DNA of 64,000 bases, from positions 1 to 64,000 of IMG/VR virus record IMGVR_UViG_3300032315_000979; one strand, 5' to 3'. Origin of the DNA: a virus. The notes under the pieces are model-generated. The model saw nothing but the letters and a program-made list of their open reading frames with translations, made no database searches and was not told the DNA's origin. Positions 8,022 through 18,501 of this stretch are shown here, piece by piece; within the stretch, counting starts at the first letter, position 1, and each line of letters opens with the position of its first letter. Both the position numbers and the translations under genes were made by a program.

Positions 8022-8357
8022 TTGGAACAAGAAATGCAATTTGAATTTATTAACGAAAATGAAATGGAATTCGCTAAGAGAGGGCGTAAATCTAATCTTG
8101 ACGAAAAGTTTGTTAATTCAGTTAAAGAAATGATCAAAAAAAATGATTCGGTTGCGAAAAAGCAATTTGTTATCATTTCAAGTTTGGCAATTCCTTCGGA
8201 TTTGACTGACATTAAGGATATCAAAAACTATAAGGCTAAAGTTGCAGCAATGCTTCGTACATTGGCTAAGAATTTGGGTTATGGTTCAGAAATCCGTTGG
8301 CATAAGGAAACAGTTCCAGCTATTCGTTTTACTTCAGTTAAGGGTAAAACTAAATAA
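8022..8357 (+). CDS. small basic RGRKS-motif protein, paralog 1 (putative DNA-binding)
   Basis: FEFINENEMEFAKRGRKSN shared with 8828-9124 and 9692-9973. Confidence 0.8.
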   Translation: MEQEMQFEFINENEMEFAKRGRKSNLDEKFVNSVKEMIKKNDSVAKKQFVIISSLAIPSDLTDIKDIKNYKAKVAAMLRTLAKNLGYGSEIRWHKETVPAIRFTSVKGKTK

Positions 8358-8827: not shown

Positions 8828-9124
8828 TTACTTGCGCTTTTCGGTGCGAACCACTTGCGGTACGCCTGATGACGACCACATGATGGTTACTGTAACATTA
8901 GCCTGCTTGCTAGCAGAACGGATAATAGCACCGTAACGGGCTTTATCAGTCTTTGCTTTGGCAGACTTCATGTCAACCGAAAAGGAAGTCAACTTGAGCG
9001 CTTGCTTTGGTGTAAGTTTACGCAACGCCTCAACAAGTTGAGGCGGGACGGTTGACTTACGACCACGGCTAGTAAACTCAAGTTCGTTTTCACCAATGAA
9101 CTCAAACGAGAAATCGTCAGCCAT
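8828..9124 (-). CDS. small basic RGRKS-motif protein, paralog 2
   Basis: FEFIGENELEFTSRGRKSTVPP...W...GVPQVVR; AAGGA RBS. Confidence 0.85.
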   Translation of the reverse strand: MADDFSFEFIGENELEFTSRGRKSTVPPQLVEALRKLTPKQALKLTSFSVDMKSAKAKTDKARYGAIIRSASKQANVTVTIMWSSSGVPQVVRTEKRK

Positions 9125-9691: not shown

Positions 9692-9973
9692 TTACTTGCG
9701 CACGATCTGCGGCACGCCATCTGGCGACCAGAGAATTTGCACCTTGACCTTCGCCTGCACACTTGCCGAGCGAATGGTTGCGCCGATCCGAGCCTTGTCG
9801 GTCTTGACCGTTGCTGACTTGACATTGACCTTCAAGGCTGACAAGCGAACGCCCTTGCCCTTTGGCATGTCTTTGATCGCCTGCACGAGTGCTGGTGGAA
9901 CATTAGACTTGCGACCTCGTTGGGTGAATTCCATTGAATTTTCGTCAATGAATTCAAATTCAAACTCTGACAT
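9692..9973 (-). CDS. small basic RGRKS-motif protein, paralog 3
   Basis: FEFIDENSMEFTQRGRKSNVPP...WSPDGVPQIVR; AAGGA RBS; upstream TTGCAA-17-TATCGT promoter. Confidence 0.85.
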   Translation of the reverse strand: MSEFEFEFIDENSMEFTQRGRKSNVPPALVQAIKDMPKGKGVRLSALKVNVKSATVKTDKARIGATIRSASVQAKVKVQILWSPDGVPQIVRK

Positions 9974-10334
9974 GGTTTATCCTTAGTGATCTCACCCCGC
10001 AGGGTGTGTCTTGGCGTTATTGCCTTGACATGAATAACGATAAGGCTTAGGGATAAGAATTGCAAGGTAATCAGATCGTAACAATGCCCGCAAACCCAAT
10101 GCCCATATGAGATATATCACCGACATTGTTACAATATGGTTACAACTCTAAAGTTACACGAGAAACTCTAAAATTACATGATCGGGGCTAATGTTACACA
10201 GAGCGGCGAGATCGCCCAGATCGGGGGTCGTAAAGTTACACGAGTGTAAAGTTACATTCTCATAAAGGTGAGATCAGGTAATGTTACATCCATAAAACAT
10301 ACTAAACTAATGATACACACGGGTAATATTACAT

Positions 10335-10372: not shown

Positions 10373-10438
10373 CCCCCAAGCTCTGTAATTTTACAGCCTG
10401 GTAACTTTACTGGTGTGTAACTTTACTCGTGTGTAACT

Positions 10439-10924
10439 TTACACGAGCCGTTCGCTGTATTCTTGGCTATGCTCTAGAGCCCATGAGAGACCACCCTCTT
10501 TACCATAGACCCAATCGGTCTCCATGTCGGTCTCAATTTCTAAATCGGGCGTAGTGTAGAAATCGTTATAGACAGGCGTATTCTCTATTGCTAAAGTTAC
10601 GGTAGGGTAATTTTCCCTAACCTTGTCAAAGAAATCCCGCACCGCATTATCCCCGATAGATTTCAGCAAGGCTAATTGACAAGCGAAAATGTCGGGCTCT
10701 GTAATTTTAGGCAGGATTAGTTGCCCACCCTTACCCCTACCCGTAGGCAATAAATTACCGTAAATATCGGTAGGGAATACATCTGTCAAAACTTCCTTGA
10801 CTGTAACTTTACGCAGACCAAACCATTTGGCAATATCTGCAGGCGGTACGCCATCATGATACATCTCGCAGATATCATCTACAAGGTCGGCTGTAAGTTT
10901 AGACACTCTCATTTTTGTCTCCAT
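10439..10924 (-). CDS. N-terminal HTH domain protein
   Basis: KLTADLVDDICEMYHDGVPPADIAKWFGLRKVTVKEVL is a typical HTH. Confidence 0.7.
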   Translation of the reverse strand: METKMRVSKLTADLVDDICEMYHDGVPPADIAKWFGLRKVTVKEVLTDVFPTDIYGNLLPTGRGKGGQLILPKITEPDIFACQLALLKSIGDNAVRDFFDKVRENYPTVTLAIENTPVYNDFYTTPDLEIETDMETDWVYGKEGGLSWALEHSQEYSERLV

Positions 10925-11243
10925 GTAATTTTACCCTTGAGCGGGTTTGGTTTGGTTACAGCGTTCAGTAATTTTACAGTAGAGTTTTCACCTTTGGTTA
11001 GTCCTGGCGAAATCTCTTTGTATTCCTTTGGTGTAACTTTAGATAGGCTTTGTAATATTTCTAGTATGTGTCGTAATTTCATAAGCTTATTCTAGCCTAT
11101 TCTCGTGTAATGTTAGAAGTAATTTTAGGCAATTTTTGAGGTATATAAAGGGTAAGTAACATTACTATTACGATAAAACCTGCTCTGTAATATTAGTTTC
11201 ATAAACTTACACTAAACTAATCTTACAAGGGTCTAATGTTACT

Positions 11244-11283
11244 GCGGGCGTAATATTTGGTGAAGCTCAAATATTACGCCCGC
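11244..11283. repeat. cassette-boundary hairpin H4
   Basis: GCGGGCGTAATATTTG-GTGAAGCT-CAAATATTACGCCCGC. Confidence 0.9.
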
Positions 11284-11320
11284 CTGTAATTTTACAGTCC
11301 TGTAATTTTAGACAGAGACA

Positions 11321-11356
11321 AAGAAAAACCCCTGCGGAGGGCGCAGGGGTTTTCTT
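11321..11356 (-). terminator. intrinsic terminator (possibly bidirectional)
   Basis: AAGAAAAACCCCTGCG...CGCAGGGGTTTTCTT. Confidence 0.8.
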
Positions 11357-11370
11357 ACTCGCTTGTAAGT

Positions 11371-11613
11371 TTAGAACTCAGTGAGTATGTCCTCAGGCAA
11401 CTCATCAGTGATATCTCGCTCATCGGCATCGTCAATGTCATCGTCTAACACTTGTGCAAAAATTACACTCATGTCAGGGTCATCGCCATTGTTGTTTTTG
11501 ATAGAACGCAATATTTTACCTAGATGCTCAACGCTCTCGGCTTCATACAGAAAACTATCTGCCCATTCTGCATCGCCTTGCTCAAATTGCCAAGATACTT
11601 CGTAAGTGTTCAT
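11371..11613 (-). CDS. small very acidic protein
   Basis: 80 aa, D/E-rich; AAGGGAG RBS. Confidence 0.75.
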   Translation of the reverse strand: MNTYEVSWQFEQGDAEWADSFLYEAESVEHLGKILRSIKNNNGDDPDMSVIFAQVLDDDIDDADERDITDELPEDILTEF

Positions 11614-11630
11614 GTAATTTTACTCCCTTG

Positions 11631-11855
11631 TTATTTTTGGGTCTCGCCCAAGATTTGTGAAAATGAATGTTCGCTATCTTCAATTTGTGTTGTTGTGTTT
11701 AGGACACCACAAAACTTACACACGGCATGGATTTGGGTAATTGTAAACTTACCATGCTGTACTTCTACGGAATTGCTACCGATGAATGAATACTCATGCG
11801 GTAGGTTATCCCGATAATTTATGCGGTTCCTAATCTTACAAGTGAGATATGACAT
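11631..11855 (-). CDS. small hypothetical protein (C, H, CxxC)
   Basis: GAAGGG RBS, leader hairpin, -10 TACGAT upstream. Confidence 0.65.
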   Translation of the reverse strand: MSYLTCKIRNRINYRDNLPHEYSFIGSNSVEVQHGKFTITQIHAVCKFCGVLNTTTQIEDSEHSFSQILGETQK

Positions 11856-12029
11856 TGTGTAACTTTACCCTTCGGTCTAATGGCTGGCATTATTGCCAAC
11901 ACAAACATCGTAGCAAATTTTCGTGTAATAGTAGAGGTAATTTTAGATTATTTTTTAGTCAAAAAGCGGTAAGTAATTTTACGATCATAAACATATATTA
12001 AACTAAAGTTACAGCTCCCTAATGTTACA

Positions 12030-12069
12030 GCAGGTGTAACTTTTGGAAGAGCGCAAAAGTTACACCTGC
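12030..12069. repeat. cassette-boundary hairpin H5
   Basis: GCAGGTGTAACTTTTG-GAAGAGCG-CAAAAGTTACACCTGC. Confidence 0.9.
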
Positions 12070-12105
12070 CTGTAATTTTACAGCCGTGTAATTTTAGACC
12101 AGGCA

Positions 12106-12141
12106 AAGAAAAAGCCCCCGCTTTTGGCGGGGGCTTTTCTT
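12106..12141 (-). terminator. intrinsic terminator (possibly bidirectional)
   Basis: AAGAAAAAGCCCCCGC...GCGGGGGCTTTTCTT. Confidence 0.8.
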
Positions 12142-12155
12142 ACTTGCTTGTAACT

Positions 12156-12248
12156 TTAGTCTCGCTCAAAGTACCAAGCAAGTGCTACGGGGATAATTAT
12201 CCATGACCAAAGAATTACAACCCCGTAGATGATTTTGATGATGCTCAT
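12156..12248 (-). CDS. 30-aa membrane peptide (not in ORF track)
   Basis: MSIIKIIYGVVILWSWIIIPVALAWYFERD; upstream CAAGGGAGTAAAATTAC identical to that of 11613. Confidence 0.7.
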   Translation of the reverse strand: MSIIKIIYGVVILWSWIIIPVALAWYFERD

Positions 12249-12269
12249 GTAATTTTACTCCCTTGTAAT

Positions 12270-12626
12270 TTATGAATTGGCTAATTCTGCGATTAGTTGG
12301 CGAAATGCGTCAGTTGGCAAAGACAAGTCCTGCCCGACAATGTGCGAAACTTTTTCGCTCATGCGGTCAAGGCTAATCACTAGGTCAAGTGAATTGATTA
12401 ATACGGTGGATACCCAGTCACGATTATCCATAGGCATATCGTCTGCTGTAACTTTACCCTCCAGTAATTTTGCAAGGTTGGTAACGCTATCGGCATAGTC
12501 GCAACCGTCAGTCACATAGTCAAAGTCAATTTCCAGTATGTCAAAAGTTACAGTAGTGAAAATTTCTGTAACGGTGCAAAGGCTCTCATTTAGGTAGAGC
12601 ATTTTCTTTTGGAATTCGGTGGTCAT
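12270..12626 (-). CDS. acidic hypothetical protein
   Basis: GAAGGG RBS, leader hairpin, TGATATGCT extended -10. Confidence 0.75.
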   Translation of the reverse strand: MTTEFQKKMLYLNESLCTVTEIFTTVTFDILEIDFDYVTDGCDYADSVTNLAKLLEGKVTADDMPMDNRDWVSTVLINSLDLVISLDRMSEKVSHIVGQDLSLPTDAFRQLIAELANS

Positions 12627-12830
12627 GTAATTTTACCCTTCGGATTATTGGTCGGCATTATTACCGACACAAACAGCATATCAAATCCTCGTGTAATAAT
12701 AGAGGTAATTTTAGGCTATTTTTGAGCCTATTTTCGGGGTTGGTAAGATTAGATTTCGTAAAGTTACAAGCTTCTAAAGTTACAAGTAGAAATATGTACT
12801 CCACATAAAGGTAGAGTGTCTAATATTACA

Positions 12831-12870
12831 GCAGGTGTAAGTTTAGCATAGCGCCTAAACTTACACCTGC
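12831..12870. repeat. cassette-boundary hairpin H6
   Basis: GCAGGTGTAAGTTTAG-CATAGCGC-CTAAACTTACACCTGC. Confidence 0.9.
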
Positions 12871-13084
12871 CTGACTGCCTCATAAAGATTTACTAAACTA
12901 ATATTACAGCACAGTAACATACACAGTGGTGTAATGTTACACGGTATACCATGTATGCCCATGTAATATTAGAGTGAATAATTATGCAAGGTAATGCATA
13001 ACTAATTAGTTGCGCCTGGTCTTACATGGTGGTAGTATTTGGTTGTTGGGCAATTCCGCTCAACCAGTAATGAAAGGTAGTCCA

Positions 13085-13540
13085 ATGGCTACAAGTAAGG
13101 CGAAAGCCAAAGTGTCGGTGAAAGTTGCAGTGTCGGCTACTGCAAATAAGGTAGACAAAGCCCGTACCACTAATGCCCGCAAAGGCGTAAAGCAACACTA
13201 TTCCGATAGCAAAGCCGTTGCGTTCTGGCAACTCTTAGCGTTGGTAGTCAAGTCACCACTAATCGCAAAGGACTTGCGTGTTGCAACTAAGAACAACGCT
13301 CAAGCCCGTAGGCAATGGTGCATAGACAATGGTGCAGTAGTGGTATCTCGTGCAGATGTCACACACAAGGTACAAGGCGATAGACCAGACAATGCAGTGA
13401 GGGCAAGACTTATCTCACTTGCCAAAGTAGACGCAAGCGCAAAGCGTGTCGGCTATATCCGTGTGCTAGACGCATACACTGCAAGTCGTAATCCAAAGCA
13501 TGCAGACATAGACAAGGTATATCTATATCGCATTGCGTAA
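13085..13540 (+). CDS. highly basic protein, paralog A of 13949-14428
   Basis: ATG 13085 after GAAAGG RBS; DLRVA.KNNA.ARR.WC, RPDN.VRAR, GY.RVLDAYTA, KVY.YRIA shared. Confidence 0.85.
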   Translation: MATSKAKAKVSVKVAVSATANKVDKARTTNARKGVKQHYSDSKAVAFWQLLALVVKSPLIAKDLRVATKNNAQARRQWCIDNGAVVVSRADVTHKVQGDRPDNAVRARLISLAKVDASAKRVGYIRVLDAYTASRNPKHADIDKVYLYRIA

Positions 13541-13948: not shown

Positions 13949-14428
13949 TCAAGCGATCCGATAGACATACACCTTTTGGCTGTCGGGGTGTGTCGGGTTT
14001 TTCTTGGCGGTGTAAGCGTCAAGCACTCGGACATATCCAACCTTTTTGGCGTTCGGGATTACCGAGCGTAGGGAATGGATCCGAGCCCGAACGGAATTGT
14101 CAGGTCGCTCGGCTGGCGTAGCCTGCCCAGCCTTCACGCCGTCAATTTTCTGAACGGCGAGCCAATCAACCTTCACAGCCTTATTCATGACACACCATGA
14201 ACGGCGAGCGCTGGCGTTATTTTTGCTGGCGACCCGTAGATCCTTGTCAATGATTTTTTGCCCTGAAACGCTGGCGAGCAAACCGATCAACAATTCCGCA
14301 GGCTTATCTGTGTAGAATTGCTTGACCCCTGCCGTAGCGTTCTTGGTGTTTTTTGCCGTGATCTTGGTGATCTCGGTTTTTGCCGAGACCGTAGCCTTGA
14401 CACTAGCCTTCACTTTTTTCGTTGCCAT
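13949..14428 (-). CDS. highly basic protein, paralog B of 13085-13540
   Basis: Same motifs; GAAGGGG RBS; convergent with paralog A. Confidence 0.85.
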   Translation of the reverse strand: MATKKVKASVKATVSAKTEITKITAKNTKNATAGVKQFYTDKPAELLIGLLASVSGQKIIDKDLRVASKNNASARRSWCVMNKAVKVDWLAVQKIDGVKAGQATPAERPDNSVRARIHSLRSVIPNAKKVGYVRVLDAYTAKKNPTHPDSQKVYVYRIA

Positions 14429-16958: not shown

Positions 16959-17034
16959 TGGCTGGCGAGGTAGGGTTTGAACCTACGACCCAGGGATTAA
17001 CAGTCCCTTGCTCTGCCAACTGAGCTACTCGCCA
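16959..17034 (-). tRNA. tRNA-Asn(GTT)
   Basis: Cloverleaf, anticodon loop CTGTTAA, encoded CCA. Confidence 0.93.
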
Positions 17035-18407: not shown

Positions 18408-18429
18408 ATTATATTGCTCCTTATATCAG

Positions 18430-18501
18430 AGCCCCCTCTCGGACTTGAACCGAGGACCGCTTCATTACAAGTGAAGTGCTCTACCGCTGAGCTAAAGGGG
18501 C
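18430..18501 (-). tRNA. tRNA-Thr(TGT)
   Basis: Cloverleaf, anticodon arm CTTCA-CTTGTAA-TGAAG; CCA not encoded. Confidence 0.92.

Follow-up and report, generated by a model that had tools for sequence, protein, structure and literature searches.

The 64,000 nucleotides (nt) of DNA analysed here (hereafter the window) are bases 1-64000 of a 108,687-bp phage genome from IMG/VR (IMGVR_UViG_3300032315_000979) and contain two adjacent cassettes on the minus strand, cassette 1 encoding products of 74 and 80 amino acids (aa) and cassette 2 products of 118 and 30 aa (Table 1). A sequence-only reading of the locus had held that the two share a regulatory scaffold round open reading frames (ORFs) that show no similarity. 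A blastn dot-plot of one cassette against the other bears this out, with three collinear shared blocks, all of them non-coding, and nothing in common between the ORF bodies. The first block (11858-12013 against 12626-12784; 74% over 160 nt, E 1e-26) takes in the promoter block, the leader hairpin and a ribosome-binding site (RBS). The second (11244-11374 against 12030-12159; 79% over 132 nt, E 9e-26) covers a long hairpin, two sites of the motif described below, a terminator and the stop context, and the third (11607-11639 against 12242-12274; 91% over 33 nt) is an intergenic RBS. The variant of the promoter block marked at 11103 proved to be a real third copy.

The absence of similarity between ORFs in corresponding slots was confirmed at several levels. 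Slot partners did not align in BLASTP even at a cutoff of E<=100, and when family profiles (alignments A1, A2 and A3, built from relatives) were compared with hhalign the probabilities were 0.2% for the 74-aa against the 118-aa family and 0.5% for the 80-aa against the 118-aa family. The predicted folds also differ, the 118-aa product being modelled as an all-alpha bundle (pLDDT 93) and the 74-aa product as mostly beta (pLDDT 63, about 80 in the core). Neither the profiles nor the predicted folds indicate homology of the slot ORFs. All four ORFs are under purifying selection relative to their relatives (dN/dS 0.06-0.18; 0.16-0.18 for the 118-aa gene and 0.06-0.10 for the 30-aa gene). Invariant Cys and His residues in the alignment of the 74-aa family suggest a metal site, and the 30-aa product is a single hydrophobic helix. 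For the 118-aa model, Foldseek found no match in the PDB at E<=0.001; homologues of the protein were confined to close relatives and one 120-aa protein at about 42% identity, which itself retrieved nothing in a scan of viral contigs. Pfam and PHROGs searches of all small ORFs gave nothing except a weak DUF433/helix-turn-helix (HTH) hint in a 161-aa protein of the neighbouring cassette 3.

The scaffold is assembled from one 10-bp palindrome, GTAAnnTTAC, which flanking bases extend to a 12-bp consensus. Seventy-two copies lie in the 5.9 kb between 7.79 and 13.7 kb, against 0.6 expected from shuffles, and about a dozen are scattered over the other ~103 kb of the 108.7-kb genome. Each scaffold is a multi-part unit of 250-300 bp with about 12 palindrome copies. 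Read in the direction of transcription, it opens with a perfect hairpin of ~40 bp followed by three or four palindrome copies, mostly inverted and partly phased at ~16 bp. An A-tract with two sense copies comes next, then a TGnTAnnnT-like element and a stem-loop, and ahead of each ORF stand a Shine-Dalgarno (SD) sequence, a palindrome and the ATG. At the 3' end the stop codon lies inside a palindrome copy. After it come a terminator-like stem, GC-rich and with a run of Ts, and a further pair of sense copies at a spacing of 16 bp, before the next long hairpin, whose arms are an inverted palindrome pair. In five unrelated genes the motif ends 0-3 nt upstream of the ATG. Its orientation follows transcription: in the stretch that begins with the promoter block and ends with the post-terminator sites the A-rich centre is on the sense strand with few exceptions, and copies upstream of the promoter block are mostly inverted. 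We also note a recurrent TTTAGT, with a CTTTATG-like sequence within a few nucleotides, 25-45 nt downstream of each long hairpin (window about 12800-12812, 11990-12000, 11195-11215 and 10290-10300), which is present in relatives as well. Most likely, the palindrome serves as an operator through which a DNA-binding protein, encoded by the phage or possibly by the host, controls the region. An Rfam search of 7.6-15.2 kb gave only sub-threshold, terminator-like hits and no family over threshold.

What had been called a promoter block resolves into two palindrome copies upstream of a conserved extended -10-like element. In an alignment of 12 promoter-leader copies from the window and its relatives (A4), the first palindrome copy is invariant, as is a -10-like hexamer preceded by TG or GG, and the distance between the two is 24 nt in every case, including those in which the second palindrome is displaced by 2 nt. 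The conserved TGnTAnnnT-like element is therefore read as a predicted extended -10. No conserved -35 was found in this alignment, the motif copies occupying that space, and a scan with the sigma-70 consensus was not enriched (17 hits, 15.9 expected). If transcription starts the usual 7 nt after the hexamer, the first palindrome copy would be centred near -41.5 and the mRNA would begin at the foot of the leader hairpin; for the third unit, and for the unit that corresponds to it in the closest relative, the same assumption would put the start of the mRNA at the ATG, without a leader. In these two units the predicted -10 lies only 7 nt before the ATG of a 57-aa ORF (window 11080-11097) and before the second ATG of a 165-aa ORF (L009:790-810) respectively, a spacing that suggests leaderless mRNAs. 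Pairing in the leader hairpin is kept across five different stem sequences, with folding energies of -8.5 to -13 kcal/mol against -2.5 to -5 for shuffles; it was judged from single-sequence folds, MAFFT having put the arms out of register. Both the -10-like element and the leader hairpin can also be recognised ahead of a plus-strand gene that starts at 13085 (window 12990-13090, plus strand), and the scaffold thus serves a divergently transcribed gene too.

Table 1. Features of cassettes 1 and 2 and of the adjoining cassette 3 (window coordinates).
Feature	Position	Strand	Remark
Long hairpin H6, upstream boundary of cassette 2	12830..12871	-	17-bp stem from inverted motif pair
Upstream array of four motif copies, mostly inverted	12743..12829	-	three ~16 bp apart (15-16 bp start to start)
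Promoter block, cassette 2: A-tract and two motif copies	12689..12730	-	repeat family D10
Predicted extended -10 (TGnTAnnnT type), cassette 2	12675..12683	-	24 nt after first motif copy
Leader hairpin, cassette 2, predicted mRNA 5' end	12651..12668	-	-11.1 kcal/mol, shuffles about -2.7
Translation initiation region (TIR): SD and motif abutting ATG	12627..12641	-	same design before five minus-strand genes
118-aa acidic all-alpha ORFan, cassette 2	12270..12626	-	sub-clade only
Intergenic RBS and motif	12249..12269	-	same junction as between 74-aa and 80-aa genes; 91% over 33 nt
30-aa hydrophobic peptide gene, family f9, cassette 2	12156..12248	-	24 loci by tblastn
Stop codon within motif copy, then GC-rich predicted intrinsic terminator T5	12109..12159	-	
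Two sense-oriented motif copies past terminator	12072..12097	-	16 bp apart
Long hairpin H5 separating cassettes 1 and 2	12029..12070	-	
Promoter block, cassette 1	11921..11960	-	
Predicted extended -10, cassette 1	11907..11915	-	
Leader hairpin, cassette 1	11883..11900	-	stem changes compensatory relative to cassette 2
74-aa gene, family f6, cassette 1	11631..11855	-	most conserved cargo; invariant Cys/His, predicted beta fold
80-aa acidic gene, family f5, cassette 1	11371..11613	-	variable; 80-aa and 86-aa alleles
Stop codon within motif copy, then predicted terminator T4	11324..11374	-	
Two motif copies and long hairpin H4	11243..11311	-	14-bp copy at 11284-11297 is the upstream repeat arm flanking cassette 3
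Cassette 3: promoter block (11103-11140), 57-aa ORF, 161-aa HTH-like protein, phased motif sites	10383..11242	-	
Second repeat arm of cassette 3	10383-10396	-	cassette absent as one 901-bp unit in L105/L106
161-aa HTH-like gene, cassette 3	10439-10924	-	

A scan for two phased palindrome copies led to a clade of IMG/VR contigs, several of them 95-109 kb in length, with the same motif-dense region, and protein-based scans added further metagenome contigs. When the cargo was catalogued across about 15 related contigs, the same genes appeared in at least seven operon layouts of one to four ORFs. The commonest is a single 74-80-30 operon (f6-f5-f9, as in L091). It is extended by a 69-aa gene in L078 and L054 (74-80-69-30; f6-f5-f216-f9) and ends in a 34-aa gene in L086 and L068 (74-80-34; f6-f5-f200). 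The operon is 71-74-30 in L084 (f152-f6-f9, preceded by a lone 80-aa gene, f5) and 71-74-85-30 in L072 (f152-f6-f5'-f9, preceded by a lone 85-aa gene). The arrangement of the window, [118-30][74-80] or [118-f9][f6-f5], is shared with L102/103, L104 and L105/106, and in L101 and the closest relative (L010+L009, 93% nucleotide identity) the 118-30 cassette is accompanied by an 86-aa gene alone with another leader. The 161-aa gene, with its cassette, lies upstream of the 74-aa cassette in L050 (3918-4358, minus strand) but downstream of it in the window, so cassette order is permuted; in L105/106 the cassette is missing. In a second group of relatives the promoter ahead of this 74-80 cargo is another one, of conventional appearance, which means that scaffold and cargo assort independently of each other. 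The sequence-only reading had drawn from the window a reusable two-slot chassis with interchangeable cargo. Of this, the reuse of the scaffold round unrelated genes stands, as does the variation of the cargo between related phages at scaffold joints. The two fixed slots do not, given cassettes of one to four ORFs, and since the 80-aa and 30-aa genes are neighbours within one operon in most relatives they are not alternative occupants, or alleles, of the second slot. A separate observation concerns the 80-aa protein (window 11371-11613), which is 100% identical to that of L054/L028 (L054:5043-5282). At the nucleotide level the genes nevertheless show 22 differences. None changes an amino acid and 13 lie in the final 45 nt, a pattern resembling a mosaic in which the centre was exchanged recently and the C-terminus is old and under strong constraint.

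Indel breakpoints between relatives fall on GTAAnnTTAC copies. Cassette 3 sits between identical 14-bp repeats that contain the palindrome (Table 1), and L105/106 have one copy of the repeat and no cassette. Similarly, a 16-bp direct repeat lies on both sides of the 69-aa gene in L054 and L078, and within it fall a palindrome copy, the stop codon of the 80-aa gene and the two codons before that stop. Initiation regions have changed partners: the 30-aa gene of the window is fused to the TIR that in cassette 1, as in L091, belongs to the 80-aa gene, the 86-aa allele of the closest relative bears a TIR typical of the 74-aa gene, and the 30-aa gene of L084 has the TIR of the 85-aa gene of L072. 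The stop context of the window's 80-aa gene runs into the terminator exactly where that of L091 runs into the 30-aa gene. Terminator stems have been exchanged as well, with stems at 41-45% identity between flanks at 97-100% (L104) or 81-100% (L106). The scaffold is otherwise well conserved. Between the window and L106 synonymous dS is 0.6-1.7 and the ORFs are 73-84% identical, and H6, the first TIR and the first stop context are 100% identical, most other scaffold parts being at 81-95%. The exceptions are the swapped T5 stem (45%), the cassette-1 leader (60%) and H4 (70%, aligning to a different hairpin), which look exchanged, not slowly diverged.

The genome, with a G+C content of 39%, closes via a short terminal overlap of about 120 bp. 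Two WhiB-family genes outside the window (genome 77515-77694 and 103689-103877; L109, L108) point to an actinobacterial host, and the portal is 42-47% identical to portals of large Streptomyces phages such as BillNye and Wakanda. Promoters consisting of a -10 only, and leaderless messages, fit actinobacterial transcription. The contigs come from what we take, from their IMG sample numbers, to be lakes, and the host is probably a low-GC freshwater actinobacterium. Neither a tyrosine nor a serine recombinase was found in the complete genome (PF00589 was absent and controls were positive), and for this reason the phage is probably lytic; overall it is probably a lytic, siphovirus-like freshwater actinophage. 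A megablast search of the region against cultured phages gave no match. Three tRNA genes were noted in the window (Arg-tct 1411-1485, Asn-gtt 16959-17034 and Thr-tgt 18429-18501).

We propose, with a probability of roughly 60% for the explanation as a whole, that cassettes 1 and 2 are paralogous transcription units on one palindrome-built scaffold, that they arose by tandem duplication and that their cargo has been shuffled through short homologies. The two would belong to a single 6-kb hyperplastic region of the ~108.7-kb phage, in which conservation of the scaffold, much stronger than that of the genes, would be due to its function as an operator. Because the same sequences of 10-40 bp are found at every gene and cassette boundary, short-homology recombination between these copies would delete, insert, replace and reorder ORFs and whole cassettes, an outcome that is visible in the junctions compared between relatives. 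For the window pair, an ancestral cassette with a promoter, the 74-, 80- and 30-aa genes and a terminator may have been duplicated in tandem. One copy would have lost the 30-aa gene to become cassette 1; in the other, the 118-aa ORFan would have replaced the 74-aa gene and the 80-aa gene would have been deleted, giving cassette 2. Such a history would leave the ORFs unrelated although the scaffolds are homologous, and a pair best read as a tandem duplicate with reciprocal loss and gain would not be a fixed two-slot chassis.

Several considerations weigh against this proposal. The coincidence of breakpoints with the motif is partly forced, because surviving whole-gene indels must break at gene boundaries and all of these are marked by the motif; evidence of mechanism therefore comes only from the two repeat-flanked indels. 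Parsimony is the ground for the proposed sequence of duplication, loss and gain. A test for enrichment of the -10 spacing was weak and confounded, because the motif itself matches TAnnnT. The cassettes are probably early transcription units, yet 'early' is said by analogy alone, and promoter and terminator are predictions. Finally, searches of the neighbouring conserved families against Pfam, PHROGs, Atlas and the PDB did not yield a binder of the motif.

One explanation for the data that does without any special role for the repeats is that the scaffold is conserved as a regulatory element only, and that the turnover of genes reflects ordinary illegitimate recombination filtered by selection to gene boundaries. 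With motif copies at all boundaries, breakpoints would be expected there after selection, and the scaffold is clearly under purifying selection. We nevertheless consider this unlikely, as two indels are flanked by exact direct repeats of 14-16 bp with a single copy in the shorter genome, the TIR of one gene is fused to another gene in at least three cases, and terminator stems and alleles have been replaced between conserved flanks. Another possibility is that the motif acts mainly in RNA, its copies at starts and stops binding a translational repressor, an RNase or a small antisense RNA, with the DNA array being secondary. The single, sense-type orientation of nearly all copies from promoter to post-terminator site would fit such a role, as would the copy abutting each ATG, and the start-associated sequences of Cluster K mycobacteriophages offer a precedent (PMC3203893). 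About half of the copies, however, lie in untranscribed spacers, where they are inverted, phased at ~16 bp and set inside perfect DNA palindromes, and no Rfam family scored over threshold; we therefore regard a mainly RNA-level function as improbable.

The locus might also be a cassette system with dedicated site-specific recombination, like an integron or a mobile element, and the long hairpins or the palindrome would then be the recombination sites. The cassettes do measure 0.8-0.9 kb and have imperfectly conserved hairpins at their limits, one of them is either there or missing in its entirety, and their order varies between genomes. In the complete genome, however, neither a tyrosine nor a serine recombinase was found, every cassette comes with a promoter-like block and a terminator of its own, the stems of the hairpins are perfect and lack attC-type features, and breakpoints use many different motif copies and not the hairpins alone. 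An integron reading was rejected for want of a recombinase, and site-specific systems of this kind are in general very improbable here. A plain tandem duplication whose ORFs have diverged beyond recognition would account for the homology and adjacency of the scaffolds but is scarcely credible and was rejected, most strongly because the 80-aa and 30-aa genes coexist as operon neighbours in most relatives, and also in view of the hhalign probabilities, the alpha bundle and beta folds predicted and the 88% conservation of the 74-aa family across the clade, which shows that it is not fast-evolving.

Returning to recombination between short boundary homologies, a more ambitious version of this proposal is that a dedicated phage protein, perhaps from a conserved paralogous family in the array, targets the palindrome, silences the region and also promotes exchange at its sites. 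We think this improbable, and nothing in the present data calls for an exchange function that is active and dedicated. With or without such a function, the palindrome has candidate binders in the HTH-like 161-aa protein and in two paralogous families whose genes are embedded in the motif array or adjoin it and are found with it in every relative. The first is a basic family of 93-107 aa with three paralogues (window 8034-8357, plus strand; 8831-9124 and 9695-9973, minus strand), which received no annotation from Atlas or PDB profile searches; the second, of 151-159 aa, has two (13085-13540, plus strand; 13949-14428, minus strand). Database searches assigned a function to neither family. Were a protein that both silences the region and promotes exchange to exist, the 6-kb locus would be a self-contained, recombinase-independent device for gene capture and shuffling, in which an ORF dropped between two motif copies would gain promoter, RBS, stop context and terminator at once.

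The nearest known system is the promoter-early stem-loop (PeSL) of T4-type phages, a mobile regulatory cassette (Arbiol et al. 2010, PMC2839356; Comeau et al. 2014, PMC4122927). PeSLs occupy intergenic spaces and combine an early promoter, with -35 and -10 boxes of the host sigma-70 consensus, and a stem-loop terminator, ending with SD and start codon; recombination between neighbouring elements produces encapsidated mini-circles (PMC2839356, PMC4122927). The present locus resembles them in having repeated composites of promoter, terminator and RBS before small ORFans in a hyperplastic region (7.8-13.7 kb), and in the indels, replacements and reshuffling between close relatives that break in the repeated element. 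In composition, terminator-like stem-loops with T-runs, SD sequences and start codons are present, the promoter is a prediction from the conserved extended -10-like element, and the unit is much longer than a PeSL. The differences are that this is a siphovirus-like actinophage and not a T4-like myovirus, that the joint is a multi-part scaffold of 250-300 bp made of one 10-bp palindrome that also occupies the SD-ATG spacer and overlies stop codons, that there is an additional 40-bp perfect hairpin, and that the predicted promoter has motif copies in place of a -35.

Stoperators, the sites of the L5/Bxb1 repressor in Cluster A mycobacteriophages (PMC6550527, PMC9283540), likewise belong to actinophages, where a short site is repeated many times, follows the direction of transcription and lies within short intergenic spaces or close to them, protein binding being putative in the present case. 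The stoperator is an asymmetric 13-mer that occurs 20-30 times across the whole genome of temperate phages whose repressor is known (PMC6550527, PMC9283540), whereas here about 70 copies of a palindrome are confined to 6 kb and no integrase or repressor was found. The start-associated sequence (SAS) and extended SAS (ESAS) of Cluster K mycobacteriophages (Pope et al. 2011, PMC3203893) are also conserved just upstream of the ATG of different gene families, the SAS lying 3-7 bp from it, sometimes with inverted repeats upstream and with stop codons within the repeat (PMC3203893). Their sequence is unrelated, the SAS contains the SD itself and is non-palindromic, and it has not been reported at terminators, in phased arrays or as a joint of indels (PMC3203893). 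The palindrome is an analogue of the SAS and not a member of that family. Integron cassettes are alike in their arrays of short cassettes with hairpin-forming repeat boundaries and variable cargo, and differ in that the phage has no integrase, that each of its cassettes has its own promoter block and terminator, and that its hairpins are perfect stems of 16-17 bp without attC features, attC stems being imperfect.

If the proposed shuffling through short homologies is correct, modular exchange of the PeSL type would extend from T4-like myoviruses of Gram-negative hosts to a clade of freshwater phages of ~105-110 kb that probably infect low-GC Actinobacteria. The design would be unusually explicit, as a single 10-bp palindrome would serve as promoter element, RBS spacer, stop-codon context, post-terminator site and hairpin arm, and through this reuse the regulatory grammar and the recombination joints would be the same sequences. 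The scaffold, being more conserved than the genes it carries, is a concrete target in the search for the regulator of the region, and with its series of naturally occurring layouts the clade may serve to examine how small host-takeover genes are newly acquired and tried out by phages.

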